A stretch of DNA of 64,000 nucleotides from the NCBI GenBank assembly GCA_965277805.1, contig OZ255842.1:2592001-2656000 (forward strand), given 5' to 3'. Origin of the DNA: Candidatus Lustribacter sp. (lineage in GTDB: Bacteria; Vulcanimicrobiota; Vulcanimicrobiia; Vulcanimicrobiales; Vulcanimicrobiaceae). Shown in pieces: positions 18,910-44,564 of this stretch; positions within the stretch are counted from its first letter, which is position 1; each line of letters begins with the position of its first letter. Position numbers and translations under genes: made by a program. A model generated the notes under the pieces. That model had not been told where the DNA came from. It was given only the letters and a program-made list of their open reading frames with translations, and did no database searches.

Positions 18910-18913
<4 letters not shown>

Positions 18914-21455: not shown

Positions 21456-21489
21456 GTAAGGCCCGCCGTTACAAACGGCGGGCGCTTAC
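21456..21489 (-). terminator. GC-rich hairpin downstream of the RND gene (no clear U-tract)
   Basis: GTAAG-GCCCGCCGTT-ACA-AACGGCGGGC-G-CTTAC. Confidence 0.45.
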
Positions 21490-21493
21490 TTGC

Positions 21494-24745: not shown

Positions 24746-24748
24746 ATG

Positions 24749-26089: not shown

Positions 26090-26337
26090 ATCCAGCATTG
26101 TACGCGTATTCCTATCGAGCGCTATCGCCAATTTCCCAGGAAAGTTCCCGCGGCGTCCCGCCCCCACTACGCCCTCCTGTTAAAATGTCCCGTTCAGTGG
26201 GATCGGCCTTGCAAAAAACTTACAGGCGGAGCCGGCATCGCCTAGGCCCCGCTTGCTATCCTTAATAGAAGCCGAATACGACCCGAGCAACAGGGGCAGG
26301 ACGGTCTCGCGGGTCGTTGAACCGATGCGGGTCGTGG

Positions 26338-28298: not shown

Positions 28299-29381
28299 GT
28301 GGTCATTTTGCGTTCGTCTTTTCCCAGCCCATCACCGCAGCTGCTGGCGCTGACAACCGCGCTTCCCAGTAACGTTATCGAGCAGAGCAAAGCGGCTGAG
28401 ATGGCGCGCGCATTCTTCGGCGATCGCATGCCCCGCTACGACGCGCTCTCGCGGGTGTTCGCATCGACCGGCATCGAGCGCCGGTACTCCGTCATGCCGC
28501 TGGCTTGGTTCGGCCAGAGTCACGATTGGCCGGACCGCACCGCCTGCTACATCGACGGCGCGAGCCGGCTCTTCGAAGACGTCGTTCGCAAGGCGCTCGA
28601 TGCCGCGCAGCTCGATGCAAGCGAAATCGATGCGGTACTGACGGTCTCATCGACCGGCGTCGCAACACCGAGCCTCGAGGCGCGCGTACTGCCGGGCCTC
28701 GGCTTCCGGTCCGACGTTCGCCGGATTCCCATCTTCGGTTTGGGCTGCGCCGGCGGCGTGGCGGGGTTTGCCAATGCATCGCGCATTGCGGCGAGCGAAC
28801 CCGGCACCACCGTGTTGCTCGTGACGATCGAACTCTGCACGCTGGCGTTTCGCCTCGACCGGGCGGAAAAGGCGGATATCGTTTCCGCAGCTCTGTTCGG
28901 CGATGGCGCGGCCGCAGCAATCTTTCGCAGCGGCGACGGCCCGGCCATCGGACGCGTCGGCGGCGCGACCGAGCATCTGTGGGAAAATACGCTCGACATC
29001 ATGGGCTGGTCCACCGACCCGGCCGGGCTCGGCGTGATTCTCTCGCGCTCGTTGCCCGATTTCGTCGCGCAGAACTATCGGCTCGAGTACGATCGCGGCA
29101 TGCACCGCCTCGACCTCGCGCCGGCCGATATCGCGCGCGTCGTTTGTCACCCCGGCGGAACGAAGGTGCTCGAAGCGATCGAATCCTCGCTCGATCTCCC
29201 GGCGGGAACGTTCGATCTCGAGCGCTCCGTGATGCGGGACTTCGGCAACATGTCGTCACCGACCGTGCTCTTCGTGCTCGAACGCCTGCTGACGGAGGGA
29301 TTCGAAGGAACGGCCGTGCTGGCGGCCCTCGGCCCCGGTTTCACTGCATCGTTCGCGACACTGAACGTCGGCGATGTCTAA
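28299..29381 (+). CDS. Type III polyketide synthase (SrsA/BcsA-like alkylresorcinol/alkylpyrone synthase)
   Basis: Catalytic triad in GLGCAGG, CHPGG, GNMSS; ALFGDGAAA; ALGPGF. Confidence 0.93.
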   Translation: MVILRSSFPSPSPQLLALTTALPSNVIEQSKAAEMARAFFGDRMPRYDALSRVFASTGIERRYSVMPLAWFGQSHDWPDRTACYIDGASRLFEDVVRKALDAAQLDASEIDAVLTVSSTGVATPSLEARVLPGLGFRSDVRRIPIFGLGCAGGVAGFANASRIAASEPGTTVLLVTIELCTLAFRLDRAEKADIVSAALFGDGAAAAIFRSGDGPAIGRVGGATEHLWENTLDIMGWSTDPAGLGVILSRSLPDFVAQNYRLEYDRGMHRLDLAPADIARVVCHPGGTKVLEAIESSLDLPAGTFDLERSVMRDFGNMSSPTVLFVLERLLTEGFEGTAVLAALGPGFTASFATLNVGDV

Positions 29382-29895
29382 CGGCCTGCTGCTTCTCGTT
29401 TACGTAACGCTCCAGCGCCTCGTCGAACTCGTGATAGCGCAGCGCAACACGCGCAGACTGCTCGCGAGCGGCGCCTACGAAGCCGGCGCCGGACACTACC
29501 CCATCATGATCGCGCTCCACGCGACGTGGCTGCTGACCCTGTGGATCTTCGGCTGGAACCGGACGCTGGTGCCGGTATTCGTCGCGTTCTTCATCGTCTT
29601 GCAATTCGGCCGATATTGGGTGCTGCGAACGCTCGGCGCGCGCTGGACGACGCGCATCATCATCACGCCCTGGGCCGCACCCGTGACGTCAGGCCCGTTT
29701 CGCTTCGTGCGGCACCCGAATTATCTCGTCGTCGCGTTCGAGCTGCCGTGCGTCTCGCTGGCGCTCGGTCTCGTTTGGCACGCGCTGGTTTTCGGCGTGC
29801 TCAACCTCATGATGATCGCATGGCGCATCCGGTCCGAGAACGCTGCGTTCGACGTGCTCGGGACAAAAGCCGACGCCGAACACGCGCGCCAGTAG
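29374..29895 (+). CDS. Isoprenylcysteine carboxyl methyltransferase family protein (SrsB-like)
   Basis: QRLVELVIAQRN, LGARWTTRI, GPFRFVRHPNY, RIRSEN. Confidence 0.9.
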   Translation: MSNGLLLLVYVTLQRLVELVIAQRNTRRLLASGAYEAGAGHYPIMIALHATWLLTLWIFGWNRTLVPVFVAFFIVLQFGRYWVLRTLGARWTTRIIITPWAAPVTSGPFRFVRHPNYLVVAFELPCVSLALGLVWHALVFGVLNLMMIAWRIRSENAAFDVLGTKADAEHARQ

Positions 29896-31056
29896 CAACG
29901 GAAAGACCGGGATCGCGGCCAGCACGCGAACGAGCCAGTGCGCGTCGGAGAACGTTCCCTCAGCCGCCAGGACGCGATCGAAGATCAACCGCTGCAGCAT
30001 CGCCTGCATGCCTTGCGTCAAGCGCGCCGGACGCTCGCGCCGGGCTTGCACGCCCGCGAGATCCCGCTCCGAAACAACGCCACGACGTAGCGGCTTCGCT
30101 AGACGGTTGGCGGTGGCAACCGCATCCTGAATCGCAAGATTGACACCGACCCCGCCGACCGGCGAGGTCGCATGCGCCGCATCCCCGATGCACAGCAATC
30201 CGGGACGGTGCCACCGGCGCAGACGGTCGACCTTGACCGCAAGCACTTTGATGTCGTCCCAGCTCTGCAGTTCGCCGGCCCGGTCCGCGAACACCGGCAT
30301 CAATGCCGACACCCGTTCGCGCAGCAGCGCGAGGCCGGCCGCGCGAACCGCATCGTAGGTTCCTTTCCGGATGATGTAGCCGCACTGGTAGTACGTGCCG
30401 CAGTTGATCGCGACGAGGATGCGCCCGGCGTCAACGTAGCCGAGCAGAACCGCCGGATCGGCCGGATTGCGCGAGATGCGAAACCACAGGACATCGAGCG
30501 GCGCGCCCAATTCGACCGGCTGCAATTCCGAACGGCTGCGCATCGCCGAATGGCGCCCGTCGGCCGCAACGACCAGATCGGCGCCGATCGTCAGCGAGCC
30601 GTGCGGCGTCTGCGCACGAACTCCGGTCACGCGCGTTCCCGTCTCGACCAGGTCCGTCGCTTCGGCATTCATCTCGAGCCGAAACGCCGGCAGCGCGCGA
30701 GCGCGCTCCGCGAGAAAATTTAGGAAGTCCCATTGCGGCATGATGGCGATGAACTTGCACCGGCCCGGCACGTTGCGGAAATCGGCCGCGCGCATGAGCC
30801 GCGGTCCGACCATGCCGTGAAACGCGCGCAACTCCGCGTGCGGAAGCTGTAAGAAGTCGTCGAGGAGGCCGAGTTCGTCAAGCACCTGTAACGTCGACGG
30901 GTGCACCGTGTCGCCGCGAAAGTCGCGATGGAAATCCGCGTGCTTCTCGAGCACGACGACGTCAACGCCGGCACGGGCCAGCAGATAACCGAGCATGAGC
31001 CCGGCGGGGCCGCCGCCGACGATGCAACAGTCCGTCTCTCTACGCGCAGAACTCAT
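29689..31056 (-). CDS. FAD-dependent oxidoreductase/monooxygenase (UbiH-like)
   Basis: GGGPAG, DFRGDTVHPST, AADGRHS, IGDAAHATSPVGGVGVNLAIQDA. Confidence 0.9.
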   Translation of the reverse strand: MSSARRETDCCIVGGGPAGLMLGYLLARAGVDVVVLEKHADFHRDFRGDTVHPSTLQVLDELGLLDDFLQLPHAELRAFHGMVGPRLMRAADFRNVPGRCKFIAIMPQWDFLNFLAERARALPAFRLEMNAEATDLVETGTRVTGVRAQTPHGSLTIGADLVVAADGRHSAMRSRSELQPVELGAPLDVLWFRISRNPADPAVLLGYVDAGRILVAINCGTYYQCGYIIRKGTYDAVRAAGLALLRERVSALMPVFADRAGELQSWDDIKVLAVKVDRLRRWHRPGLLCIGDAAHATSPVGGVGVNLAIQDAVATANRLAKPLRRGVVSERDLAGVQARRERPARLTQGMQAMLQRLIFDRVLAAEGTFSDAHWLVRVLAAIPVFPLLLARVFGVGFCPEHVERSVLGPDAPCDHHEVEHAENQRVPNETERQRDARQLERDDEIIRVPHEAKRA

Positions 31057-31094
31057 GACGCAGCGGCCGGTCTCCTCGCGCTAGTATCGCTGGC

Positions 31095-31313
31095 TTACTG
31101 CATCGGCGGAATATCGGGCGTCGCTTGCGGCGTGCACTGGGGATGACCGCACTCGCACGCAACGTGCCGGTCTAGGCGAGCCAACTCCTCGCACCGCTTG
31201 CTGCAATATTCGGCGTTGGGATCGATCGGGCGCGTGCCCGCAGCAAGAACCTTTGAAGAGTATGGTCGTGTACAGAGACACGCGAGATATCCGCACGGTG
31301 CCGAATCACTCAT
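31095..31313 (-). CDS. Prokaryotic metallothionein-like protein
   Basis: 72 aa, 8 Cys and 2 His: CxxxxCxC...YCSxxC...CxCGHxxC. Confidence 0.75.
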   Translation of the reverse strand: MSDSAPCGYLACLCTRPYSSKVLAAGTRPIDPNAEYCSKRCEELARLDRHVACECGHPQCTPQATPDIPPMQ

Positions 31314-31386
31314 TATAGCGTGTTTCTTGCCCACATTTGGAGCCAGGCAATACTTGGCTCGCTAGCGTACACGAAGTCGCCGGCGC

Positions 31387-32499
31387 CTAGGTGACGATCG
31401 TCCGGCCCGCAATCGCACCCGCCGGACCGTCCCTAAGTACGATGTGGAGCGCGAGAGCGGTTCCGGCGTGCAGTACGTCGTCGCTATCGAGGGCGATCGA
31501 CGGTGCATCTTCGACGTCCATGCCGATGCCGTGCCCGAGTCCGTAACCGCTCGCAAAGGCCAGCAAGGCGTCGTCGTTTAGCGCTGTTTGCGCCGCGGCG
31601 GCGATCGTGCTGCCGCGCGCGCCGGCGATGGCCGCAGCTTCCATCGCATCGACCGCCGCGCGGGCGCGCGACGCAAGGTGCTCGGCCCGGGCGTTCGGCG
31701 TGCCGATTGCGAACGTTTGCGCGGCTTCGCTCCAATAGCGCTGAATTTCGACGCCCAAAAACAACATAACCGTGTCGCCGTCTTCAAGCCGGCGCTCGAG
31801 CGGCGGCGCGAGCTCGTTGTGGCCGGGGCCGCCCGAAGTGAGCATCCGCACGTCTTCCGCGCCGGCCAGCCGGATCGCGCGCTCGATCTGCGCAAAGGCT
31901 TCGCTCGTTGACGCGCCGGGGCGCAACAGCGTCGCGGCCAGGGCAAACGCGGCGTCGAGAACGCGCGAGGCCTTATGCGCGACGGAGAAGTCAGCCGCGT
32001 CTTTGTTGCGGCGCAAAAGCGCGAACTCCGCATCGCGCGGCACGAACGTCACGCCGGGGACGGCGCTGCGGAGAGCATCCCACTCGCGAGCCGGAAACGT
32101 TTCTACCACCCCGATCGTTCCGATACGAGCCTTTGCAAGACCCTGCTCTTTCAGCGTTTCGGCGAGCTTCTTCGCCAGGTTCGCAAACATGCGGACGTCG
32201 GCAATCCAGGTCACCGGACGGATCGAGGGCAACGTCCGCGCGCCGCCGTTGACGAACACGACCGGCGGCGCATCGAGCGTCACCAGCACGGCGGCATCGC
32301 GGATGCGTGGAAAATAGTGCGCGACGTACGCGAGCGCTCCGCAACGCTGCGCATCCCCGTAGAAAAGCCAAGCGGAATCGCCGGCGGCTCGGATGGCCGC
32401 CTGCACGTTCTCGAGCCGTGATTGCAGCAACGCCGCCGGCACGAGGTCGGCATCCCAAAAGACCGCGCCATGCTTGATGACCGTGTGAACGGTTTGCAT
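31387..32499 (-). CDS. M24 (creatinase/aminopeptidase P fold) protein, degenerate metal site
   Basis: Creatinase-N-like region, GHGIGMDVED; TGATG-coupled to the upstream paralog. Confidence 0.8.
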   Translation of the reverse strand: MQTVHTVIKHGAVFWDADLVPAALLQSRLENVQAAIRAAGDSAWLFYGDAQRCGALAYVAHYFPRIRDAAVLVTLDAPPVVFVNGGARTLPSIRPVTWIADVRMFANLAKKLAETLKEQGLAKARIGTIGVVETFPAREWDALRSAVPGVTFVPRDAEFALLRRNKDAADFSVAHKASRVLDAAFALAATLLRPGASTSEAFAQIERAIRLAGAEDVRMLTSGGPGHNELAPPLERRLEDGDTVMLFLGVEIQRYWSEAAQTFAIGTPNARAEHLASRARAAVDAMEAAAIAGARGSTIAAAAQTALNDDALLAFASGYGLGHGIGMDVEDAPSIALDSDDVLHAGTALALHIVLRDGPAGAIAGRTIVT

Positions 32500-33641
32500 C
32501 AGACCGTGCGCCAGAAAAGCTTCGCCGGCGTCTTCGTCAGCACCCGCGGCCGCGCGTTTTCGATAACTACCGTATCGCCGAGCATTAGGTAGCCGGTGTC
32601 GGGAAAATACTGATTGGGATGGATGACGAACGTCATGCCCTCTTCGAGCGTCGGACCGCCTTCCGGGTCGAGATCGCCCGGCAGCACCGACCCTCGTCCG
32701 AGACCGTGACCGCGCGTGCGCATGTACGGCGGCCGGCAAAACTCACCGTAGCCGCAGTCCGCGATCACTTGGTTGGCGGCCTCAGCGATCGCGGAGCTGC
32801 TCTGCCCCGGTAATGCCGCCGCGAAGGCCCGGCGCTCTGCTTCGACGAGGATGTTGAAATTTTCCACGGTTTTCGGCGTCGGCTCGCCGAGGACGAACGT
32901 CCGGCATAATTGGGCGTGATAGCCGTGAAATGCGGGAGTGATTTCGCCGACGATAACGTCTCCCGCTTCGAAGCGCCGCTCGGTGGCGCTGCGCACGGCG
33001 GTGTTATGGCTTCCGCCGGCGATCAAGCCGAAATTATCGGCCGCCCCGAGCGACTTCATCGTGGCTTCCACTTCGGCCGACAACTCGTACTCCCGCATGC
33101 CCACGCGGGCAACCTCGCAGATCCTTGCAAAGCCGGCGTCGGCAATTTCCGCGGCGCGTGCAATGCGCGCGATCTCCGCCGGCGATTTCGTCGCAGCCAG
33201 GCGCGGGATAATTTCCTTTTCGTCCGTCAGCGACGCGAGCGCGGGAAACGAATCCACCGCGCGTACCGGGAGCGCATCGCCGCCGATCAGCGAGACCGGC
33301 CGCGGGGCTTGCGCGATCGATGCGGCCGCCGCATGCATCAACCCGTTTGCATTGGCCGCAACGACGTCCGCATAGGGAACGCGACGTTGGGCGCGTGGCG
33401 CATCCCATGCGGGCGTCACAAACAGCGTCGGGCGGCCGTCAAGCGGCAGCAGCAGCCAGCACGGACCGACGGCATAGAAGTCGGTGAGATAGAACAGCTC
33501 GCCCATGCGCGTCATGTCGTGCTGCGCGCTATCGTAGACGGCCAGCGTCGCGATCTTCTTCTTCGCCATCTCCGCGCGCACGCGGTCCAGCCGGCCGCGA
33601 AGTTCGGTTTCGGAAACGTGAAGCGAATCGTCGAGCAGCAT
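32499..33641 (-). CDS. M24 (creatinase/aminopeptidase P fold) protein, non-canonical ligands
   Basis: KSPAEIARI, GEITPAFHGYHAQLCRTF, RGHGLG, FVIHPNQY, LGDTVVI. Confidence 0.85.
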   Translation of the reverse strand: MLLDDSLHVSETELRGRLDRVRAEMAKKKIATLAVYDSAQHDMTRMGELFYLTDFYAVGPCWLLLPLDGRPTLFVTPAWDAPRAQRRVPYADVVAANANGLMHAAAASIAQAPRPVSLIGGDALPVRAVDSFPALASLTDEKEIIPRLAATKSPAEIARIARAAEIADAGFARICEVARVGMREYELSAEVEATMKSLGAADNFGLIAGGSHNTAVRSATERRFEAGDVIVGEITPAFHGYHAQLCRTFVLGEPTPKTVENFNILVEAERRAFAAALPGQSSSAIAEAANQVIADCGYGEFCRPPYMRTRGHGLGRGSVLPGDLDPEGGPTLEEGMTFVIHPNQYFPDTGYLMLGDTVVIENARPRVLTKTPAKLFWRTV

Positions 33642-33697
33642 AGGGCGCCGTATTCGGCACGTCCACGAGGTTTCGCCCCTGCCGCCGCTGCACTCAA

Positions 33698-34642
33698 ATG
33701 ACGATGAAGCGTTCGCAATGGTTGGCATCAAGCGCGGCGTCGGGGATCTTCGCGGGTGCGGGGCTTTCGCGAGCGGTCGCGCAGGATGCGCCCGCGCTCA
33801 GAATCGGCCTGCCCTACGCGGAGCCGAGCGGACCGGCCTACTATGCTCAGGAGCTGGGGCTCTATAAGAAGGCCGGGCTCAACGTCGAGCTCGTGCAATT
33901 GCAAAACGGAGCAGCCATCGCGGCCGCCGTGATCGGGGGCACCGTCGACATCGGCGCCTCCCAAATTCTCTCGCTAGCGGTCGCACGCTTGCGCGGCGTA
34001 CCGTTCATGATGATCGCAGCGGGCGGCTTGTGGGATGCCGCGCGCCCCAACGCGGGGTTGATCGTCGCGCCCAACTCGCAGCTCACGCGCGGGCGCGACC
34101 TCGTCGGCCGCACGGTCGGAACGACCGTGCTCGGTGGAACCGATCAGTTGGGCGTATTCGCGTACGTCGACCGCGACGGCGCGGATCACAAAGGCGTGAA
34201 GTTCGTTGAAATGCCGGCCAGCGTCATGGTCGACGCCGTCCTGCAGGGCCGCGTCGACACGGCGCACGTAACCGACCCGGCGTTCTCGGATGCGATCGCT
34301 TCCAAGCGCATCCGCATTCTGACGAATCCCTTGAGCAGCATCGCGCGGCGGTTTATCCTAACCGCCTACTTCACGAATAGCAGTTGGCTCGCTGCGAACA
34401 AACGCGCCGCGCAAGCATTTGCCGGCGTGATCAACGACGCCGGCGTGTGGGCGATGAACAATCGCGAAGCGGCGGCGCAGATGCTCGCGAAGTACATCCC
34501 GATGGCGGAGCCGCGCGTTACGTCCACATTCGGTGACAGGCTCGACCCGGCGCTCGTTCAGCCGATGTACGATCTGGGCGCCAAGTACGGTTTTCTTTCG
34601 AGCCCGGTCGACAGCAAGACGATGCTCTGGAACGGCAAGTAA
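33698..34642 (+). CDS. SsuA/THI5-like ABC substrate-binding protein
   Basis: Tat-like signal, ELGLYKKAGLNVEL, DLVGRTVG, GRVDTA. Confidence 0.85.
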   Translation: MTMKRSQWLASSAASGIFAGAGLSRAVAQDAPALRIGLPYAEPSGPAYYAQELGLYKKAGLNVELVQLQNGAAIAAAVIGGTVDIGASQILSLAVARLRGVPFMMIAAGGLWDAARPNAGLIVAPNSQLTRGRDLVGRTVGTTVLGGTDQLGVFAYVDRDGADHKGVKFVEMPASVMVDAVLQGRVDTAHVTDPAFSDAIASKRIRILTNPLSSIARRFILTAYFTNSSWLAANKRAAQAFAGVINDAGVWAMNNREAAAQMLAKYIPMAEPRVTSTFGDRLDPALVQPMYDLGAKYGFLSSPVDSKTMLWNGK

Positions 34643-34741
34643 GGACGCCTTAAGACGTTCGAAATCTGCCCTTAATTTAAGCTTTACCGCAGACTTTTAA
34701 CGTACGGCTAAGTCGGGCCTCGGCTCGAGACTTTTTGTTTT

Positions 34742-37669
34742 TTGGAGGGTTCGTTGCGCATCCGTACCTTGAGCGCGGCTTTTTTTGTCATGTGCGCGAT
34801 CGCACTGCCGCACGTCGCGATCGACGCGCAGACCAGCAAGACGATCGCAGCCGCACCCGGCGATAGCCGTCCACCGTCGCTCGGCATAAGCATCGTGATC
34901 AACCCGGGCGCCGGTGTCGGCACCTTAACGAGAGGACAGGTCGCCGGCGTCTTCAACGGCACCGTGACCAATTGGAGCCAGGTCGGCGGCGCAAACGTTC
35001 CGATCGCGGTCGTCACCCGCGGAACGGATTCGCTCGCGCAAGCGGCCTTCGATAAGGTATACCTCGGCGGTGCGAATCCGACTGCAGGCCAGGCGCAGCC
35101 AGGTACGGCTGCCGCGATCGACGCCGTGAGCGTCAACCCGGGCGGCGTAACCTTTGCGTTCGACAACGAACTCACGGGTGCCGGCGGTGTCGCCTTCGTG
35201 AGCGTGAGCGACGTACGGCAGACCGACGTGACCGGCCTCATCAACCTCGGCACGGTGGGTCAAACGACGGAAGCGGGTGCCTTCCAGATCATTGGCGGCG
35301 CAACGTCGAGCGGGCCGGCAATCGGAACAATAGCACCCACCCAGGCTGACGTTCATTCGATGGAAGCGCATTCGTTGATCACGCGGGACTTCATCGAAGA
35401 AAACGCGTCGCCGATCGCGGAATTTACGCGCATCGCGACGATCGCTCCGAGCGTCACCAACACGGGTGCGGTCAACGGACCGGGGCTCTCCGAGCAAACG
35501 CTGATCATTCGCGGCATGGCAAAAGACTTCACCAACCTCACGTTCGACGGTATCCCCGTCAGCGACACCAATGATCCGTCCTACCATTCCACCTCGTTCT
35601 TCCCGGAACTGATCGTCGGCGGCGTCGACGTCGTTCGCGGCCCCGGCTATGCGAGCAACATGGGCTATGCCACGTTCGGCGGTTCTGAAAACGTGTACAC
35701 CCTCGCGCCGTCGGAAACGAAGTCGCTTGATGCCGCCTTTTCCTACGGTTCGTGGAACACGTACATCGGCAGCCTGAGCTATCAAAGCGGCCGCCAGAAA
35801 TGGCTCGGCAACGGAACGCTGATCGCCACCTACCAGGACCTCGGCTCGCAAGGGTATCTCACCGGCAACGCGATTTGGAGCCGCAACTACTCGTTCAAGT
35901 ACGAAGTGCCGCTCGGCAGCAAGACGCTCTTGGACGCGTTCGCGACTTGGAACGATCAAGCGTTTAATGCTGCCGACGCCGGCCCCGGCGCCACGGCCTA
36001 CGAGATTCAAACCTTCGGCGCGGACTACAGCCTGAACAACAACCCGGCCAGCGGTGAATATACCGGCTATAACTTTCAAATCAAAACCACCGACCTCGGT
36101 TATTTACGCCTGCGCACCGATCTCGGCGGCGGTGCCTATCTAGACAACAAGCTCTACACCTACCGTTACGACAACGAGACGACGGCGGCCGATACGGTCG
36201 GTCTGACCTCGACAATGGCGGCAGCCGGACAGTATCCCTCGCAAGGCACGATCACGTGCATCGCGAGCCCCGCCGCATGTACGGCTCCGCTCACGCCTGG
36301 ATCGCTCGCCTCAAACGGCCTAAAGTATAACCCGACCGATATCGGCGGCTATCTCAAGCGCAACAAATACATCGCCTTCGGTGACATTCTCCAGGGCACG
36401 AAAACGTTCGGCGACAGCTTCCTGCGCGCCGGCATCTGGCTCGAACACTCCGACACGGATCGCCACCAGTACTCGGTCGATCTTACGGACGGCGCCTACA
36501 ACTACGTCAATGGTTCGAACTGCCTCTTCGGCACGGCCCTCGGCGCCGGACAGATCTCCGGTGCAGCGGCCCCGACGGTCATTGCCCCGAACTGCGCTGC
36601 GTCGGCCGCCGGTCTTCCGGCCGGTTTGAAACAATTGCCCGGTCCGAGCGCCGGCGCGCTGCTCAACGGCGTGCCCATCGGAGCCGTCAAGTTCGACCAG
36701 CAGTCGCAGATCCTCAACGCCCAACCGTTCGTCGAATTTCAGTGGGTGCTGCCCAGCGGCACCACGATCTACCCCGGCTTCAAGTGGCTGAACATCCAAC
36801 GCTACGATGACGCGGCGATTCAGAATACGTCGCGCACGCCCAACTCCACCAACAAGATCCTCTACCAAGCGGGCCTGCCGTTTCTCTCGATCAATCAGCC
36901 GATCACGAAAAATCCCGGCGCGAACACGAACAGTGCGTTCTTCTTCCAGTATGGTCGCGGCTACGAGATTCCCGATCTCGCGACATTTTACGTGGCCAAT
37001 CCCCTGCAGAACTCGCCGACACCGAACTCGACCTCAACCTATCAGGCCGGGTTCGTCGGCACGTCAAACGAATTTCTCTGGGACGTCGACTACTACACGA
37101 TCAACTTCTCCGATCTGCAGAGCGCGCTCAGTGTCGACGCAGCCGGCAATCTCTGTGCGGCGGCAGCGGCGGGTTGCAACTACACCGCGTACTTCGATGT
37201 CGGCGGCGCGAAATATCAAGGCTTCGAATTTGAAGGCACGCTGAATCTCGGCGGCGGCGCGGCGCTCTACGCAAACTTTTCGACCGACGAAGCCAAAGAG
37301 CTGACGTACAACACTCAAGTCAAGGGCGTACCCGAGATGACGGCCGCGCTGGGCCTTCTCTATAAATCGAAACATCTCGACTCGTCGCTGATCTACAAAC
37401 AGATCGGTTTCCAATACCTCAACGCGTACACGGGCCCAGCGTCCGCGGCGAACTACAATGATCCGGCCCAGCAAGTCCAGCCCTACGGTCTGCTCGATTT
37501 CGATCTGACCTGGCGGGTGGGCCGCGGAATATTCCAGTTCAACGCTTACAATGTCGGCAACTCGCAACCGTACTTGTCGGCCGTCACGACGACGCTAACG
37601 TCCGGCAGCCTGATGAACCACATTGCGCCGACGAGCATGCTGCTGAGTTACAAGCAAAAACTCTTCTAG
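34742..37669 (+). CDS. TonB-dependent receptor with N-terminal PstS-like periplasmic-binding domain
   Basis: Signal peptide; PBP-like IVINP...LTRGQVAGVFNGTVTNWSQVGG; plug (IIRG, FDGIPVSD, VDVVRGPG, FGGS); beta-barrel with YNVGN and terminal Phe. Confidence 0.85.
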   Translation: MEGSLRIRTLSAAFFVMCAIALPHVAIDAQTSKTIAAAPGDSRPPSLGISIVINPGAGVGTLTRGQVAGVFNGTVTNWSQVGGANVPIAVVTRGTDSLAQAAFDKVYLGGANPTAGQAQPGTAAAIDAVSVNPGGVTFAFDNELTGAGGVAFVSVSDVRQTDVTGLINLGTVGQTTEAGAFQIIGGATSSGPAIGTIAPTQADVHSMEAHSLITRDFIEENASPIAEFTRIATIAPSVTNTGAVNGPGLSEQTLIIRGMAKDFTNLTFDGIPVSDTNDPSYHSTSFFPELIVGGVDVVRGPGYASNMGYATFGGSENVYTLAPSETKSLDAAFSYGSWNTYIGSLSYQSGRQKWLGNGTLIATYQDLGSQGYLTGNAIWSRNYSFKYEVPLGSKTLLDAFATWNDQAFNAADAGPGATAYEIQTFGADYSLNNNPASGEYTGYNFQIKTTDLGYLRLRTDLGGGAYLDNKLYTYRYDNETTAADTVGLTSTMAAAGQYPSQGTITCIASPAACTAPLTPGSLASNGLKYNPTDIGGYLKRNKYIAFGDILQGTKTFGDSFLRAGIWLEHSDTDRHQYSVDLTDGAYNYVNGSNCLFGTALGAGQISGAAAPTVIAPNCAASAAGLPAGLKQLPGPSAGALLNGVPIGAVKFDQQSQILNAQPFVEFQWVLPSGTTIYPGFKWLNIQRYDDAAIQNTSRTPNSTNKILYQAGLPFLSINQPITKNPGANTNSAFFFQYGRGYEIPDLATFYVANPLQNSPTPNSTSTYQAGFVGTSNEFLWDVDYYTINFSDLQSALSVDAAGNLCAAAAAGCNYTAYFDVGGAKYQGFEFEGTLNLGGGAALYANFSTDEAKELTYNTQVKGVPEMTAALGLLYKSKHLDSSLIYKQIGFQYLNAYTGPASAANYNDPAQQVQPYGLLDFDLTWRVGRGIFQFNAYNVGNSQPYLSAVTTTLTSGSLMNHIAPTSMLLSYKQKLF

Positions 37670-37692
37670 CGTTTTACCGGCGCAACACCACG

Positions 37693-37731
37693 CGAGCCCG
37701 CCAGGGCTGTACCCGGCGGGCTCGTCTTTTT
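37693..37731 (+). terminator. Intrinsic terminator after the TonB-dependent receptor
   Basis: CGAGCCCGCC...GGCGGGCTCG stem followed by TCTTTTT. Confidence 0.85.
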
Positions 37732-37771
37732 GCCAAAGGATTCGCGCCCACGGGCGTCTGAGCACGGAGGC

Positions 37772-38947
37772 ATGATCAAACGTTTTCCGGCTCTGCTCGT
37801 CCTCGGGGCGCTGCTTCTCTCGCTGCGGCCGCCGGCCGAGGCCCAACCCGCTCCGCTCGAGATCAACATCATGCTCTCGATGACCGGACCCGCCGCGTTT
37901 CTCGGCAACGCCGAGTTCGCTGCCTTTCAGGCCGCGGAGAAAACCGTCAACGCGCACGGCGGCGTCAAGGGCCGGCCGATCAAGATCGTGATTTCGGACG
38001 ACGCATCGAGCCCGCAAGTGGCGCTGCAGCTCGCCAACTCGTTCATCGCCAAAGGCGTGCCGGTCTTCCTCGGATCCCCGTTCGCATCGGCCTGCGGCTC
38101 GTTTCTTGCGATCGTCGCGAAAAATGGTCCGGTGAATTTCTGTCTGTCGCCACCGGTCAGCGCGCCGCCCGGAAGCTACGTCTTCACGGCCGGCGCCAGC
38201 GCCGCCGATCTCACCGTGGCGCTGATCCGGTACTTCCGCGAGAAGGGCATGACGCGCTTCGCGATCATCTCGACCACCGACGCCACCGGTCACGCGTTTG
38301 AGGCCGGTTATCTGACCATCCTCGGGCGGCCGGAAAACAAGAAGCTTCAAATCGTCGCAAACGAGCACTACAACCCGACCGACCTCAGCACGTCGGCGCA
38401 GATCGCGCACATCAAGGCGGCCGATCCGCAAGTGCTGCTGACCGGCACGGTCGGCACGCCGATGGGCACGATCTTGCGCGGCGTGCAAGACGTCGGCCTC
38501 GATATCCCGATCGTCGCCGTCAACGGCAACATGCTCTATCAGGAGATGGATCAGTTCGCCGCGATCATTCCGAAGGAACTGGATTTCCCGTCGTACCGCG
38601 CCATGATCGAAGGCGACGTGCGGCCCGGCCCGATCCGCGACGCGCAAAAAGTCTTCTTCAGCGCGCTCAAGGGCGCAAACTTGAAACCCGACGCCGCATC
38701 GGTGACGGGTTGGGATCCGCTGATGATCGTGTTGAGCGCCTACGCGCATCTCGGTATGAACCCGACGGCGGCGCAAATCCACGATTACATCGAGAACCTG
38801 CACGGGTTTGCCGGCGTGAACGGTCTGTATGATTTCCGCGACGGCGGTCAGCGCGGGATCGGCGCGCAAGTCATCGTCGTCGATCGCTGGGATCCCAAGG
38901 CCAAGACGTTCATCGTCTTGAGTAAGCCGGGCGGCTCGCCAAAGTAA
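37772..38947 (+). CDS. LivJ-like (branched-chain amino acid/aromatic acid) ABC substrate-binding protein
   Basis: GGAGG RBS; SMTGPAAFLG, NAHGGVKGRPIKIVISDDASSP. Confidence 0.88.
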   Translation: MIKRFPALLVLGALLLSLRPPAEAQPAPLEINIMLSMTGPAAFLGNAEFAAFQAAEKTVNAHGGVKGRPIKIVISDDASSPQVALQLANSFIAKGVPVFLGSPFASACGSFLAIVAKNGPVNFCLSPPVSAPPGSYVFTAGASAADLTVALIRYFREKGMTRFAIISTTDATGHAFEAGYLTILGRPENKKLQIVANEHYNPTDLSTSAQIAHIKAADPQVLLTGTVGTPMGTILRGVQDVGLDIPIVAVNGNMLYQEMDQFAAIIPKELDFPSYRAMIEGDVRPGPIRDAQKVFFSALKGANLKPDAASVTGWDPLMIVLSAYAHLGMNPTAAQIHDYIENLHGFAGVNGLYDFRDGGQRGIGAQVIVVDRWDPKAKTFIVLSKPGGSPK

Positions 38948-38972
38948 AGCTTTAGCGTTGCACGCCAGCAAG

Positions 38973-39791
38973 ATGCGCCGATTTATGCCGCTTCCGGTTT
39001 TTCTATTTGCCGCCGCAATCGGCGCCGCACCCGTAAGCGCGGACACACCGGACTTCGCGCCGGCAAGTCCGCCGAGCGCGTGCTCGACGCAAAATCCGGC
39101 ATTCACCACCGACGATCTCAGCGGCGTCGCCTCGCCGTGCGTCGTGACGCCGGGATCGCTGCTGATCGAAACGCTCTATTACCAAAACGCATCGCGCATC
39201 GGCGGCACGGCGCTAGCCGCATATCCGCTCTTCCGTCTGCGCAGCGGCATCGTGCGCCGCGTCGAGCTGGTCGTCGATCTGCCCTCGCAAATCGCCGAGT
39301 CGGGCCTCAACGGTGCAGGTCTCTATCCGCGCACGCAGATGGGTTACGGGTTGAATTACACGGCCATTGCTAACGCGCGCTTGGCGGCAGCGTTCGGGGC
39401 CGAAGTCATGCCGCCGAGCTCGCGCTTTACCGTCAACGAAGCGCAGCCTCGGTACGTGATCGATTTCACGGTGGGCTACCATCTGCTGCCCCACGCAACG
39501 CTCTCGGCGATTGCCAGCGGCTCGTCCTCACGTCAAGTCGGCTTCAACCAAGTCTTCCCGGCAGCAGCCGTACGCATGGCCTACGATTCGAGCGTCGCGA
39601 CGCAGTTCTCGACCGATGTCGGGGCGCGCGTCGTTACACGACATTCCGTCGCGCAAGCGTACGGCGACATCGCGGTCAGCGAACGGCTGCGCAAGAACTG
39701 CACCTTCGCCGTCGGCCTCGGCACGACGTTCAACCCGGTGTCGAACGCCAAGGCGCACTATCTCGCGAGCGGCTTAAACTTCCACCTTTAA
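38973..39791 (+). CDS. Putative outer-membrane beta-barrel (COG4313/MetA-pathway transporter-like)
   Basis: Signal peptide, SPCVVTPGSLLIET, amphipathic strands, ends GLNFHL. Confidence 0.55.
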   Translation: MRRFMPLPVFLFAAAIGAAPVSADTPDFAPASPPSACSTQNPAFTTDDLSGVASPCVVTPGSLLIETLYYQNASRIGGTALAAYPLFRLRSGIVRRVELVVDLPSQIAESGLNGAGLYPRTQMGYGLNYTAIANARLAAAFGAEVMPPSSRFTVNEAQPRYVIDFTVGYHLLPHATLSAIASGSSSRQVGFNQVFPAAAVRMAYDSSVATQFSTDVGARVVTRHSVAQAYGDIAVSERLRKNCTFAVGLGTTFNPVSNAKAHYLASGLNFHL

Positions 39792-41039
39792 CTGTTCGTC
39801 GTAGGCGGCGGGCATTGCGACTTGGCGTGAGAGCAGAATCTCGCGGCGCTCGCGCGCAGACTCGATCAGCGCCACCACAACTTCGAGCGTCGCGCGGCCC
39901 CACACGCCGTCGTGGAAGAGCGGCCGGCCGTTGACGACGCTGTCGTAGAGTTCGCCGAGGATCGAGAGCGTCAGGCCGCCGGAGGGATCGGCTTCGGGGC
40001 GCTGCAGGTCGCGTAGATCGAGTTCTTCGCGGCCGCGATCGCTATAAACGATGATCCCGTTCTCCGCGCTGCGCATCATGCCGCGCTCGCAGCTCACCTC
40101 GACCGGTCCGAGGTCGAACGGCTTCCATCCCTGACGGCCGGCGTGTTTCTTTTTCGTCGGATCGCGGCGCCCGCCGATACGCCAGTCGGCTTTCTCGCCG
40201 TCTTCGTCGCGCGTGCCGGAGAGCAAGTCGCGGCGCATGCGCGCGCGATCGGCATCGCTGAATCGCTCGTCCGCCGCGACCCACGGATACAATTCGGACA
40301 TCACGAAGTAGCCGTAGCCGTTGTGCATGATCGTGGCCGGCGTGCCGTCCTCGAACTCGAGAAACGCGGTGTAGTATCCCGGCACGGGCCGCGCTTCGAG
40401 CCAGCGCCCGGTTTGCGCGCGCACGCTGCGCACCAGACCGCCGCCGAGCAACCGGATCGTATCGATTTGATGCGGACCCTGACGGAACACGATGCCGCCG
40501 CCTTGTTCGGGATCGAGTTCGTCGGCCGTGCGCGGCCGGATGAGCCAATCGGTATACGCCCAGATATGGATCGCGGTCACCGCGCCGAGCGCGCCGCCGA
40601 GCGCGATCCGCCGCATCGCGCGATTCCAGATCGAGAGGCTGCGCGTGTGGCCGCAGGCAAGGCGCACGCCGTATTTCTCTGCGGTCTCGACCATGCGGTC
40701 CGCCTCGGCCAAATCGACCGCCATCGGCTTCTCGACGACGACGTGCTTGCCGTGGCGCATGGCCTCGATCGCGTGCTCGCAATGAAAGCGATTCGGCGTC
40801 GCGACCCACACCGCATCGACGTCATCGGCGGCGCACATCTCCGCTACCGTCGCGTACGTCTTCGTGCCGGGATAGGCGGCCTCGAAGCCGGCCCGCATCG
40901 CCGGGTTCATGTCGGCCCCGGCCACGAGCGCGTACTCCGGCATCACGTCGATGGCGGGCATCGTGCTCGCCGCTCCTTGACCCAGGCCTGCCATCCCCAT
41001 TCGCAACTGTCGCACGCGGCAATCTCCTTCGCCGGGCAC
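39774..41039 (-). CDS. Gfo/Idh/MocA oxidoreductase, phthalate cis-dihydrodiol dehydrogenase-like
   Basis: GMAGLG, VATPNRFH, VEKPMA, YTDWLIRPRTADELDPEQGGGIVFRQGPHQID. Confidence 0.85.
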   Translation of the reverse strand: MPGEGDCRVRQLRMGMAGLGQGAASTMPAIDVMPEYALVAGADMNPAMRAGFEAAYPGTKTYATVAEMCAADDVDAVWVATPNRFHCEHAIEAMRHGKHVVVEKPMAVDLAEADRMVETAEKYGVRLACGHTRSLSIWNRAMRRIALGGALGAVTAIHIWAYTDWLIRPRTADELDPEQGGGIVFRQGPHQIDTIRLLGGGLVRSVRAQTGRWLEARPVPGYYTAFLEFEDGTPATIMHNGYGYFVMSELYPWVAADERFSDADRARMRRDLLSGTRDEDGEKADWRIGGRRDPTKKKHAGRQGWKPFDLGPVEVSCERGMMRSAENGIIVYSDRGREELDLRDLQRPEADPSGGLTLSILGELYDSVVNGRPLFHDGVWGRATLEVVVALIESARERREILLSRQVAMPAAYDEQLKVEV

Positions 41040-41083
41040 CGTAAACCTTGGACAAACGCACCCGGCCGCGCTAGACTCGAATC

Positions 41084-42391
41084 ATGCTGACACTCGAAGA
41101 GAACGAACGGCTGACCCGCGTCGGCCCCGGAACCCCGATGGGCGCGCTGATGCGCCGCTATTGGCAACCGATCGCCGCGGCCTCGGAAATGAAGGACCGC
41201 TGGACCAAATCCGTGCGCCTGCTCGGCGAATCGCTCGTCCTCTTCAAAGACCGCAGCGGCCGCTTCGGGTTGATTGAAGAATCATGTCCGCACCGGCGCG
41301 CGTCGTTCCTCTACGGCATCCCGCAAGCGGACGGCATTCGCTGCCCCTATCACGGTTGGAAATTCGACGGCACCGGCAAATGCTTGGAACAGCCGAACGA
41401 GCCCGCCGACAGCACGTTCAAAGACCGCGTGAAGATCGCCGGCTATCCGGTTGAAGAGCGCGGCGGCTTGCTCTGGGCCTACATGGGCCCATTGCCCGCG
41501 CCGAACGTTCCGCCGCTTGCCGGCATCGATTCGCCGCATGCGATCCGGCTGCTCGGCAGCGCCGTGATCCCGTGCAACTGGCTGCAGATCATGGAGAACT
41601 CGGTCGACGCGGTGCACACCGAGTGGCTGCACGGGCATCTGTTCGAGTTCGTGCTCGAGCACAAGAACTTCAAGACCAAGTTCACGCGCAAGCATCTCAA
41701 AACGGCGTTCGATGAATTCCCCTACGGCATCATCAAGCGCCGCGTGATCGAAGGGCACACCGAAGACGGCGACGACTGGAAGATCGGTCACCCGGTCGTC
41801 TTCCCGTCCACGCTGCTCGTCGGCAATGCCGGCGACGAAGCCTGCCACATGCGTTATCAGTTCCGCGTGCCGATGGACGACACGCACACGCTTCACCTGT
41901 GGTATCACGTGATCGCGCCGCCGCCCGATCTGGAAATCCCCGCCGATCTCGCCGACACCGTGCACACCTACGACGTGCCCTATACCGACGAGCGCGGGCA
42001 GTATCTGCTCGACTCGATTCACGCGCAAGACATCATGGCGTGGATCACGCAAGGGCCGATCGCCGATCGCTCGCTCGAAGCGCTCGGCACGACCGACCGC
42101 GGGATCACCACGTACCGCAACATGCTGCGCCGCGAACTCAAGCGCGTCGAAAACGGCGAAGATCCGATGAACGTCTTCCGCGGCGCGGAGCCCGAAACGA
42201 TGGATCTGCCGCTCGAACTCGAGCGCACGCAAGGCGATCTCAGCCCCGAGGGTGCGCGCGGCGAAGGCTTCGCGATCACCAACCTGCGGGCGATGTTCAG
42301 CCGGCACGAGGGGCGCTTCTGCCCGCGCGGCCCCGAAATCGTCGACATGTTCGTGCAGCACCGGGAGCGCCAGCCGGCCGGCGTGGTCTAG
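41084..42391 (+). CDS. Rieske non-heme iron oxygenase alpha subunit (phthalate 4,5-dioxygenase/LigX family)
   Basis: LTRVGPGTPMGALMRRYWQP, CPHRR...CPYHGW, ENSVDAVHTEWLH, QDIMAW. Confidence 0.92.
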   Translation: MLTLEENERLTRVGPGTPMGALMRRYWQPIAAASEMKDRWTKSVRLLGESLVLFKDRSGRFGLIEESCPHRRASFLYGIPQADGIRCPYHGWKFDGTGKCLEQPNEPADSTFKDRVKIAGYPVEERGGLLWAYMGPLPAPNVPPLAGIDSPHAIRLLGSAVIPCNWLQIMENSVDAVHTEWLHGHLFEFVLEHKNFKTKFTRKHLKTAFDEFPYGIIKRRVIEGHTEDGDDWKIGHPVVFPSTLLVGNAGDEACHMRYQFRVPMDDTHTLHLWYHVIAPPPDLEIPADLADTVHTYDVPYTDERGQYLLDSIHAQDIMAWITQGPIADRSLEALGTTDRGITTYRNMLRRELKRVENGEDPMNVFRGAEPETMDLPLELERTQGDLSPEGARGEGFAITNLRAMFSRHEGRFCPRGPEIVDMFVQHRERQPAGVV

Positions 42392-43342
42392 GTGCGGTCG
42401 ATCGATCGCCGGGCAGCGCTCGGTGGGCTCGCCGCGTTCGCGAGTGCGGCCGCACTCGGCGCATCGGCGCGTGCGGAGGGAGCGCCCGTGCGCATCGGCG
42501 TCGGCAATGCCGACACGTTCGCCGAGGGCTACTACGCGACCGACCTAGGCTTCTTCGCCAAGGCCGGTCTCAACATCGATCAGCAGGTCTTCAATTCCGG
42601 CGGTGCGATTCTCGTTGCGGCCGGCGGCAACGCGCTCGACATCGGTCTCTCCAACACCGGCAATCTGGCGACCGCGATCGCGCACGGCGCGCCGTTCACG
42701 CTGATCGCCGGCGCCGGCATGTACACGGCGAGCAATCCCACCACGGTGCTGATGGTGGCGTTGAATTCACCGCTGCAGAAACCGGCCGATCTCGCCGGCA
42801 AGACGATCGCCGTTACGGCGCTCAAAGATCTCACCGAAGTCGGCACGCGCGCGTGGCTCGCGCGCAGCGGCGTCGAGCCGAACAGCGTCAAGTTCGTCGA
42901 GCTGTCGATGAACCAGATGGCCGCGGGTCTCGACCGCGGCACGTTCGATGCCGCGATCATCGGCGAACCGTTCCTCTCCGCCGTGCGCGGCAAGACGCTG
43001 CGCGTCTTCGCCAACGCCTACGACGCGCTCGGCCCGCAGTTCCTAATCGCGAACTGGTTTTCGACCACCGACTACGTGAAGAAAAACCCCGACGTCATCC
43101 GCCGCTTCGTCGCGTCGGTGTACGATACGGCGCGCTGGGCGAACGCCAACCACCCCGCATCGGGCAAGATCCTCGCCAAGTGGACGCAGATGGATCCGGT
43201 CGCCGTCAGCGCGATGGGCCGCTGCCAGTACGCCACCTCGCTCGATGCGAAGCTGCTCGATCCGGTGCTCGCCGCGATGTACAAGTACAACGCGATCGAT
43301 AAGAAACTGAGCGCCGCCGACCTCGTTACAACGCTCGGCTGA
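42392..43342 (+). CDS. SsuA/THI5-like ABC substrate-binding protein
   Basis: Tat signal DRRAALGG, DLGFFAKAGLNI, DLAGKTIAV. Confidence 0.87.
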   Translation: MRSIDRRAALGGLAAFASAAALGASARAEGAPVRIGVGNADTFAEGYYATDLGFFAKAGLNIDQQVFNSGGAILVAAGGNALDIGLSNTGNLATAIAHGAPFTLIAGAGMYTASNPTTVLMVALNSPLQKPADLAGKTIAVTALKDLTEVGTRAWLARSGVEPNSVKFVELSMNQMAAGLDRGTFDAAIIGEPFLSAVRGKTLRVFANAYDALGPQFLIANWFSTTDYVKKNPDVIRRFVASVYDTARWANANHPASGKILAKWTQMDPVAVSAMGRCQYATSLDAKLLDPVLAAMYKYNAIDKKLSAADLVTTLG

Positions 43343-44552
43343 CCAGCGCTCCCAGGCGCGCGACGCCTTCGGCGATCACGTCTTCCGGTGCGAGCGAGTA
43401 GTTCAGCCGGATCGTGTTGCGCACGGCACCGTTGGGTGAGAACGCGCCGCCGGGCACGAACCCGATGCGCTCTTCGAGTAGCGAGCGCTCGAGCAATTCC
43501 GCACCGTCGATGCCCTCGGGCAACGTCACCCAGACGAACATTCCGCCTTCGGGCTTGCTCCACGTCACGCCGGGCGGCATGCTTGCGGCCAGCGCGTTCA
43601 GCATCGCGTCCCGCCGGCGCCGGTAAGGCGGTACGAGCGTGCGCACGTGCTCGTCGAACATCGTGCTCGCGATGCGGTGCACCACCATCTGATTGATCGT
43701 TGCCGAGTGCAGATCGCCGCCTTGCTTCGCCAGCACGATCTTGCCCACGAACTCGCGCGCGGCGCAAATCCAGCCGACGCGCAAACCCGGGCACACGGTT
43801 TTCGAAAACGTCCCGCAGTAGATCACGGGGCTGCGCTCGATGCTGCCGCTGCGTTCGATCGCGAGCGCCGCAATCGCCGGCACCGGCTCGCCGTCGAAGC
43901 GAATCGCTTCATACGCGGCATCTTCCAGCACCGGCACGTTCAACTCGGCGGCGAGATCGAGCAGCGCACGCCGGTTCGCCAGGCTCAGCGTTTCACCCGA
44001 TGGGTTGGCAAAGTCCGACACGACGTAGCCGAACGCGACGCGTCCGCCGTTCTCCGCGGCCTTGCGCCGGTACTCGGCGGCCGTGTTGCTAAACAGCACG
44101 TCGTAGTGCGGTTCGTATGCGTTGAAGGCTTGCAGCGCGCCGAGATACGTCGGTTCTTGCACCAGTACCGTATCGTGCGGGTGGATGAACAATTTCGCGA
44201 TGAAGTCGAGGCCCTGTTGCGAGCCCGACGTAATGACGATGTTGTCGAGCTCGCACGGAACGCCGCGGCGGCCCATGTAATCGACGATCCAGCGGCGCAG
44301 CGGCCCGTAGCCCTCGCTGACGGAATACTGCAGCGACGACGTGCCCAGCACCGGATCGGCGAGAATCTCGCTGTACGCGCGCCGGATCGCGTCCATCGGG
44401 AAGAGCGCCGGATCGGGGATGCCGCCGGCAAACGACACCACGTCGGGGCGTTCGAGCAGCTTGAGCAGCTCGCGAATTTCGGAGGCGTGCATGCGCGACA
44501 CGCGGCCGGCAAACCAGTCGCTCCAGTCGACGGCCGCTTCGGGTGCTAACAT
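43326..44552 (-). CDS. PLP-dependent aminotransferase class I/II (LysN/Aro8-like)
   Basis: SFAGGIPDP, EPTYLGA, EDAAY, GTFSKTVCPGLRVGW. Confidence 0.92.
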   Translation of the reverse strand: MLAPEAAVDWSDWFAGRVSRMHASEIRELLKLLERPDVVSFAGGIPDPALFPMDAIRRAYSEILADPVLGTSSLQYSVSEGYGPLRRWIVDYMGRRGVPCELDNIVITSGSQQGLDFIAKLFIHPHDTVLVQEPTYLGALQAFNAYEPHYDVLFSNTAAEYRRKAAENGGRVAFGYVVSDFANPSGETLSLANRRALLDLAAELNVPVLEDAAYEAIRFDGEPVPAIAALAIERSGSIERSPVIYCGTFSKTVCPGLRVGWICAAREFVGKIVLAKQGGDLHSATINQMVVHRIASTMFDEHVRTLVPPYRRRRDAMLNALAASMPPGVTWSKPEGGMFVWVTLPEGIDGAELLERSLLEERIGFVPGGAFSPNGAVRNTIRLNYSLAPEDVIAEGVARLGALVSRAL

Positions 44553-44564
44553 CGGCGACCCGGC

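Follow-up and report, generated by a model that had tools for sequence, protein, structure and literature searches.

The window analysed here, a 64,000-nucleotide stretch of a Candidatus Lustribacter sp. genome (contig OZ255842.1), holds at 34742-37669 on the + strand an open reading frame of 975 codons plus a stop codon, which contains the peptide quoted in the original prediction for this locus. The gene product is a complete TonB-dependent outer-membrane transporter of working type, and its N-terminal extension is a single continuous lobe, domain II, of a PstS-family binding protein from which lobe I is absent. Confidence is high in this description of a transporter carrying a constrained domain II of PstS, with lobe I missing and the phosphate-holding loop degraded. 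The gene and its parts are as follows.

34742-37669, + strand: whole reading frame, a TonB-dependent transporter with a PstS-lobe N-terminal extension (open reading frame listing, Pfam, homologues, model)
34744-34748, + strand: GGAGG, putatively Shine-Dalgarno-like, 5 bases before the TTG at 34754 (direct reading of the sequence)
34754-34828, + strand: signal peptide, residues 5-29, M-RIRTLSAAFFVMCAIALPHVAIDA, followed by Q30 (read by eye)
34829-34876, + strand: short variable linker, residues 30-45 (low model confidence, low identity)
34877-35236, + strand: single alpha/beta lobe, domain II of a PstS-family binding protein, residues 46-165 (Pfam, NCBIfam, AlphaFold2, Foldseek, VIA-align, substitution rates)
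35237-35260, + strand: putative TonB box L-I-N-L-G-T-V-G, residues 166-173 (placed by position)
35261-35332, + strand: linker between TonB box and plug, residues 174-197 (alignments, model)
35333-35731, + strand: plug domain, residues 198-330 (PF07715, invariant residues, 97% identity to the copy on contig L015)
35732-37669, + strand: beta-barrel, residues 331-975, and stop codon (AlphaFold2 model, Foldseek, homologues)

The TTG at 34754 is probably the true start codon, and it is preferred because GGAGG lies 5 bases before it and because the resulting M-R-I-R-T-L-S-A-A matches the starts of homologues, which in the alignment of fused homologues begin M-R-x-x at the corresponding point. The signal peptide, recognised by eye in the protein and in the homologue alignment, has a basic n-region, a hydrophobic core and an A-x-A site.

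The transporter portion is recognised both by family profile and by fold. The Plug family (PF07715) matches residues 211-314 with an E of 2.2e-7 and 31.8 bits against a cut-off of 23.9, and A198, P199 and Q201 are invariant across 29 fused sequences. A full-length AlphaFold2 model built from 102 aligned sequences (predicted local distance difference test, pLDDT, 84.5; predicted template modelling score, pTM, 0.82) places the lobe first, followed by a disordered stretch at 163-190, the plug and the barrel; residues 1-40 have a pLDDT below 50, and the barrel is strand-rich with a pLDDT mostly above 85. Foldseek matches this model to solved TonB-dependent transporters, including PqqU (9c4o, E 1.1e-31), FecA (1kmp, template modelling (TM) score 0.80 normalised to target), FhuE, PiuA, Fiu and FpvA. 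By this fold match, the barrel is predicted to be of the 22-stranded type that encloses a plug. The Pfam barrel family PF00593 gives no match in the window protein at E <= 0.01; among the 28 full-length fused homologues, 20 are annotated with it, and the barrel is 35-39% identical to unfused TonB-dependent receptors that carry it.

Unfused homologues show, as the first residues past the signal peptide, stretches such as '..VDLGTIGASTAAGAFR..', '..TVVVSATNGSYR..' and '..ILVTATK..'. These mature N-termini (e.g., '..VDLGTIGA..', '..TVVVSA..') align with window residues ~166-182, 'LINLGTVGQTTEAGAFQ'. The TonB box is placed at ~166-173, about 5 residues past the lobe, because of this position in the alignment and of a consensus that we take to be that of the TonB box; the candidate LINLGTVG falls in the disordered stretch of the model. 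A TonB system is present in the genome of the window, where 18 Plug and 10 TonB_C (PF03544) matches lie above cut-off. Many of the Plug frames are 930-1100 residues long, some of the TonB_C matches lie in long frames (423-781 residues), and this TonB repertoire is large for a little-studied phylum.

The N-terminal lobe and its constraint

The PBP_like_2 family (PF12849) matches residues 48-191 with an E of 4.5e-12 and 46.7 bits against a cut-off of 27, and the match corresponds to positions 93-217 of a profile of 267. Only the middle of the profile is taken in, and a two-lobed Venus-flytrap with a hinge is not found. The PstS-family model TIGR02136 of NCBIfam behaves likewise, matching residues 48-138 to positions 121-216 of 295 with an E of 2.6e-15 and a score of 56.4 bits, which lies far under the full-length cut-off of 206.6. 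STN, AMIN and CarboxypepD_reg domains give no Pfam match in the protein at E <= 0.01, in keeping with the proposal in the original prediction that the extension is periplasmic and differs from these types. That a PstS-like segment of about half a binding protein lies in frame with a plug and barrel, as had also been proposed, is borne out by Pfam, NCBIfam and the models, and the half can now be named exactly as the continuous lobe, domain II.

Modelled by AlphaFold2 from 74 aligned sequences, the N-terminal segment alone (residues 40-200) folds as a PstS lobe of five strands and four helices with a pLDDT above 90 at ~49-155, confidence being low beyond ~160. In Foldseek searches with this model PstS proteins rank first, and Streptococcus pneumoniae PstS1 (4exl) is matched with an E of 4.3e-10 and a root-mean-square deviation (rmsd) of 1.8 Å over 112 columns. 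The TM-score is 0.64 when normalised to the query and 0.40 when normalised to the target, and the match is therefore to one lobe. With VIA-align the model superposes on S. pneumoniae PstS1 4lat with a Z of 17.9 (122 residues, rmsd 2.5 Å) and on Escherichia coli PstS (1pbp) with a Z of 12.9, model residues 8-131 lying on chain residues 77-233, which we take to be domain II. The sequence alignments place the query on residues 80-172 of 265 in 4exl and 75-190 of 264 in 4ecf, and phmmer relates the lobe to 4exl with an E of 6e-14. Domain II is thus held in common with these PstS structures (identity 28-32%, rmsd 1.6-2.5 Å); PstS itself is the free partner of an ATP-binding cassette (ABC) importer, whereas the domain here is attached to an outer-membrane protein and comes without lobe I and the hinge return. 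A homodimer prediction for the lobe (two copies of residues 44-165) scored 0.00 and 0.00 against a mark of 0.42, which speaks neither for nor against self-association.

Three pairwise comparisons of nonsynonymous and synonymous substitution rates (dN/dS, with dS near saturation) give ratios of 0.12, 0.28 and 0.29 for the lobe, 0.04-0.12 for the plug and 0.12-0.19 for the barrel. Across two deep subclades the mean identity of the lobe (0.48) equals that of the barrel (0.49); the plug reaches 0.74 and the free linker (31-45) 0.21. These values point to purifying selection on the lobe and to a constraint like that of the barrel. The best-conserved positions are those of the PstS core (L62, Q66, F71, G73, N77, W78, G82, G83, R93, F103), the core motif of the PstS family (L-T-x-x-Q...F-x-G-x-x-T-N-W-x-x-V-G-G...R) is retained, and the residues conserved specifically in the fused clade include R159, D162 and G165, at the exit of the lobe towards the TonB box. 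The lobe could alternatively be an inert remnant of a decayed fusion that is tolerated as a spacer, which would suit the loss of lobe I and of the binding loop, the faster evolution of the lobe relative to the plug and a narrow, patchy spread (3 of the 8 genomes of the genus). This is rather unlikely given the low dN/dS, an identity across the deep split that equals that of the barrel and exceeds that of the free linker, a fold predicted with a pLDDT above 90, and the absence of any frameshifted or further-truncated form among the 29 aligned sequences.

In the comparison of the window with contig L015 (34742-35371 against L015:7224-...), dS is 1.4-2.7 in the signal peptide, lobe and linker and only 0.5-0.6 in the plug and barrel, while the other two pairs are uniform with a dS of ~0.9-1.1. 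The contrast could reflect recombination that swapped the 5′ part of the gene, or saturation noise.

The original prediction had further suggested that the lobe captures imported substrate or senses an anion. In its present form, this alternative makes the tethered lobe a low-affinity half-site that catches or senses imported substrate or phosphate, and it draws on the fold, which is the one of the phosphate-binding lobe, on the purifying selection and on Arg93, which is invariant in 29 of 29 fused sequences and aligned with the conserved Arg of PstS relatives. The 4exl segment 'NRAAGSGSRATF' aligns here to 'TRGTDSLAQAAF', so that of the R-x-x-G-S-G-S/T loop the Arg alone is kept and the G-S-G-S/T turn is replaced and variable within the clade. 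This loop, together with the GGGSGTG and GST motifs of lobe I, is what we take from E. coli PstS structures to hold phosphate. P0253, a related transporter that carries the whole domain, has neither the Arg nor R...GSG nor the two lobe I motifs. That the lobe has lost its phosphate-holding loop is well supported by these alignments, and on this count it would not be a phosphate clamp. Laboratory-made single lobes behave in the same sense: in the available text of the reports, RBP halves in isolation fold and do not bind (PMC10601554), and the isolated continuous domain of LAO is barely stable with no detectable binding (10.1101/2023.03.18.532921). Those engineered halves and domains are, like the lobe here, single folded lobes, the present one being natural and, as the substitution rates suggest, maintained by selection. 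With the turn replaced, the other half of the site absent and not even the Arg kept in the whole-domain relative, a half-site for ligand or anion is fairly improbable.

Distribution and origin of the half domain

A homologue search returned 103 proteins, of which 29 combine PF12849 with Plug: 28 are full length (945-987 residues, 47-75% identical to the window protein) and one is a 715-residue piece. Unfused receptors account for 72 of the 103 (689-866 residues, 29-40% identity), several of them from Duganella, Massilia, Roseateles and Sphingobium. The signal peptide runs straight into the lobe in all 29 aligned fused sequences. Full-length fused copies lie on the separate contigs L014, L015, L022, L023, L025 and L026, and also in genomes G361 and G363. 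In Logan, contigs of two runs (X1 and X2) each cover the whole of 34600-37700, free of joints and with 0 differences, the two runs being one sample that is possibly the source of the assembly and so not independent support; a second study (X5) yielded pieces of a close relative. The possibility raised earlier, that the junction is a chimera or a gene-calling artefact joining a PstS fragment to a separate receptor gene, has nothing in its favour except the odd architecture itself. It is hardly credible in view of the unjointed contigs, the continuous reading frame and the occurrence of the same junction in the 28 full-length clusters and, in other assemblies, at no fewer than 6 additional full-length loci.

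The named records belong to Candidatus Lustribacter or to 'Vulcanimicrobiota bacterium' and come from peat and bog samples. The genome of the window (5.53 Mb, one contig) has one lobe-bearing gene and an ordinary PstS-like frame of 283 residues, and no paralogue of the plug and barrel was found in it at E <= 1e-10. In a sample of the phylum, 36 of 201 genomes have a lobe match at E <= 1e-5, with receptor-sized frames only in the genome of the window and in G162, the genome that encodes P0253. At the level of the family, the plug and early barrel of this lineage (E <= 1e-40) occur in 4 of 348 genomes, a denominator that includes nine genomes flagged as unpublished, and all 4 carriers are fused, the window's genome, G361 and G363 with the half form and G162 with the whole form.

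Searching the lobe against 1.84 billion cluster representatives gave 1579 matches at E <= 0.001, and among the best 150 of these three are receptor-type with an N-terminal match (P0006, P0030 and the truncated P0031). Pfam annotation of 20 of the best 150 showed the long proteins to be whole or tandem PBP_like_2 proteins or fusions to Porin_5, SLH or TIR, and the short ones to be fragment-like; an ESM Atlas look-up of the lobe likewise returned short PBP_like_2 clusters only. The fusions seen along the way include two PstS-like domains with Porin_5 (P0112, 991 residues), TIR with a PstS-like domain (P0155, 719 residues) and SLH repeats with PstS-like domains (P0138, 741 residues), and a further one, SpoIIM with a PstS-like domain (636 residues), lies in a genome of the same family (G063, L017:2730-4640, - strand). 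The PstS-lobe extension is rare, conserved and restricted to a few uncultured Vulcanimicrobiota of peat and bog. Literature searches, which did not include a domain-architecture table, found no TonB-dependent transporter described with a PstS-type extension, and on that footing the architecture counts as undescribed. This N-terminal extension, lineage-restricted and of a kind derived from a solute-binding protein, is to that extent new.

The origin of the half domain is illuminated by P0253, a 992-residue protein of the same bacterial family encoded at L016:1239-4217 on the - strand (G162:C15). It joins a whole PBP_like_2 domain (profile positions 8-265 of 267) to Plug and barrel, and it shares 42% identity with the window protein over the stretch from '..V-S-D-V-R-Q-T-D-V-T-G-L..' / '..A-S-M-R-G-Q-D-T-G-L..' up to and including the barrel. 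In the two proteins homology covers the junction motif, the TonB-box region, the plug and the barrel; P0253 has both lobes and other neighbouring genes, whereas the window protein has one lobe. The start of its lobe II aligns with window residues 47-104 at 33% identity, and two of its segments, ~70 N-terminal residues and ~50 before the junction, are without counterpart in the window protein and are those that would build lobe I. This whole-domain fusion in a related genome, like the placement of the lobe immediately upstream of the TonB box, goes beyond what the original prediction had noted.

In a tree of the plug and barrel (102 rows, 699 columns, LG+G4, a quick IQ-TREE search with midpoint root and with support only from the Shimodaira-Hasegawa-like approximate likelihood ratio test, SH-aLRT), the 29 half forms make up one clade (SH-aLRT 100) with P0253 as its sister (SH-aLRT 100), and this group is nested among unfused receptors. 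A tree of the lobe (120 columns) gives no resolution, and a single clade of half lobes and P0253 is not rejected by the approximately unbiased test (p-AU 0.80). Because P0253 has the whole domain and is sister to the half forms on the plug and barrel tree, the half form would derive from a fusion of the whole protein. The most likely course, as judged from these sequences, began with the single fusion of an entire PstS-like protein to the transporter lineage; lobe I would then have been lost before the half clade radiated, and the remaining lobe would have kept its fold and lost its phosphate-holding loop. With residues 1-330 of P0253 as query only P0253 itself was found, a singleton, and a profile of 46 free PstS-like sequences run against longer proteins gave 2 matches, neither a TonB receptor, although both searches score only ~8000 word-sharing candidates and so give weak evidence of rarity.

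Genomic neighbourhood

The transporter gene is flanked by genes for two binding proteins and lies within a wider set of catabolic genes, of which the following have been placed.

33698-34642, + strand, the same as the transporter: NMT1/SsuA-like binding protein, upstream flank
37730-38947, + strand, the same as the transporter: LivJ-like binding protein, downstream flank
38958-39791, + strand: 277-residue secreted protein with no Pfam or NCBIfam match, syntenic in L015
41084-42391: Rieske/LigXa_C oxygenase gene, within the catabolic island

The surroundings look like a catabolic island for aromatic or nitrogenous compounds, to judge from the gene content. It extends over 28299-33731 and 39774-45587 and includes a type III polyketide synthase, a flavin adenine dinucleotide (FAD) monooxygenase, two adjacent M24/creatinase-like genes, a GFO/MocA oxidoreductase, the Rieske LigXa_C-type oxygenase, a second NMT1 protein, an aminotransferase and a gene of the glyoxalase/extradiol-dioxygenase type. 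The reading frames of the M24/creatinase-like genes overlap, and one listed start is probably wrong. The 277-residue protein has language-model features like those of Phenol_MetA_deg (PF13557) outer-membrane channels (score 0.98, to be taken as a lead only) and may be a second outer-membrane route for aromatics at this locus.

The setting recalls DdvT of Sphingobium lignivorans SYK-6, which is involved in the TonB-dependent uptake of a lignin-derived biphenyl and is encoded beside a LigXa-type Rieske gene (PMC6874591, available text). The likeness, with the Rieske gene at 41084-42391 as counterpart, is one of gene context. That text lists a signal peptide, TonB box, plug and barrel as the sole parts of DdvT, and the fused homologues do not share the aromatic context.

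The arrangement with both flanking binding-protein genes is common only to the window and to L015/L022, where the transporter is 83% identical. The neighbours of the copies on L023/L014 (72%) and L025 (49%) are different and include, for example, a UDG-like gene, a resistance-nodulation-division (RND) pump and a glycosyltransferase, and those of P0253 on L016 are transglutaminase-like, cupin and short-chain dehydrogenase genes. No adjacent binding-protein gene is present at L023/L014, L025 or L016. As neighbours differ among the fused homologues, the substrate is not inferable for the family. The same comparison bears on the suggestion, made in the original prediction, that the lobe docks partner binding proteins. 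In its present form this alternative takes the two flanking binding proteins as the partners, with substrate handed on from the barrel. In its favour, the window and L015/L022 have the two genes on either side of the transporter and on its strand. The flanks at the other loci are unrelated; since the linkage is not conserved, docking as a conserved function of the lobe is very unlikely.

At 34713-34728 on the + strand, within the AT-rich 99-base-pair spacer between the upstream binding-protein gene and the transporter, a hairpin is followed by a T-run. In a scan for promoters and terminators the counts did not exceed those of shuffled sequence (1 versus 1.2 and 7 versus 7.4), and because terminator-like sites are no commoner than in shuffles the hairpin is given no meaning. 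Further upstream, at 17696-26167 on the - strand, lie a MacB-type ABC exporter (FtsX/MacB_PCD and ATPase) with an HlyD-type adaptor and then an AcrB-type RND pump with its own adaptor. In L025 an RND pump likewise stands directly upstream of the fused transporter.

Proposed role of the lobe

Because it is a single lobe, the extension would not clamp a ligand, there being no second lobe on which to close. It may work instead by protein contacts at the TonB box, much as STN domains and the extensions of SusC-type transporters do, and would then help, select or gate the engagement of one of the many TonB complexes of the cell. The choice or stabilising of a TonB partner is plausible because the genome holds 10 TonB_C proteins. 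The barrel would import a small organic substrate, the setting in the genome of the window being one of aromatic catabolism. Taken as a whole, the account of a whole-protein fusion, loss of lobe I and a lobe acting through protein contacts is the best explanation and is moderately favoured; its functional part, contacts of the lobe at the TonB box, is on its own a tentative proposal.

The proposal takes its shape from other transporters with N-terminal extensions. The STN transducers FecA and FpvA, whose barrels and plugs are among the fold matches, also carry a globular periplasmic domain between the signal peptide and the TonB box. Theirs is an STN domain that goes with sigma and anti-sigma genes, whereas here a PstS lobe takes its place, no STN match was found in the protein and no sigma or anti-sigma family was found among the 32 neighbouring reading frames scanned. 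The SusC-type transporter BT1763 of Bacteroides thetaiotaomicron likewise has an extra periplasmic N-terminal domain adjoining the TonB box. According to the available text of the report (10.1101/2023.07.07.548152), cells failed to grow on levan once this extension was deleted, and the extension was proposed to act in the formation of the complex of transporter and TonB; the fold of that extension is Ig-like, in distinction to the alpha/beta PstS lobe, which has no CarboxypepD_reg match. The nearest parallel in kind is found in AMIN-domain transporters (CctA), a rare and lineage-restricted type with an add-on between signal peptide and plug, as here. They number 395 of 251,691 entries, all cyanobacterial, in the available text of their description (10.64898/2026.07.30.741596). 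The AMIN domain is peptidoglycan-binding and of another fold, in contrast to the extension of Vulcanimicrobiota, which derives from a solute-binding protein.

Several points weigh against the favoured account. On the side of function, the lobe evolves faster than the plug (58-62% versus 84-97% amino-acid identity), the invariant Arg93 could serve as a weak anion site, the genomic context varies among the fused homologues, and the role given to the lobe is an analogy drawn from its position. On the side of origin, P0253 gives a poorer match to the lobe than the free PstS-like proteins of the phylum (E 3e-10 versus ~1e-17), lobe II of P0253 is not the nearest to the half lobe by sequence, the lobe tree is without resolution, and the plug and barrel tree comes from a quick search with a midpoint root. 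Since free PstS-like proteins outscore P0253, a second, independent fusion could have given rise to the half form.

A bolder reading takes the lobe as a new regulatory module, half of a binding protein that would make contact, through the exposed face once turned to the cleft or hinge, with the TonB box, a TonB paralogue or a partner lobe in trans, and this engagement might be ligand-dependent through Arg93. This reading is unlikely. If it holds, the state of the periplasm would act as a gate on energy coupling at the outer membrane, and the lobe would be the first natural class II binding-protein lobe kept alone by selection, with a bearing on single-lobe ancestors of these proteins.

N-terminal extensions of TonB-dependent transporters decide signalling in the STN type and are essential in the SusC type, and few kinds are known. 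The PstS-lobe extension is a further kind, with a solute-binding protein as its source, and its whole-domain relative shows how it may have arisen. It is also a natural counterpart of the experiments in which binding proteins were split, a continuous lobe apparently long kept as a tethered domain. The narrow distribution limits the practical impact. If the partner of the lobe is a TonB paralogue or the TonB box, the extension would provide a handle on the pairing of TonB with transporters in cells that have many TonB proteins, and it would do so in uncultured Vulcanimicrobiota of peat and bog, whose envelope biology is almost unstudied.

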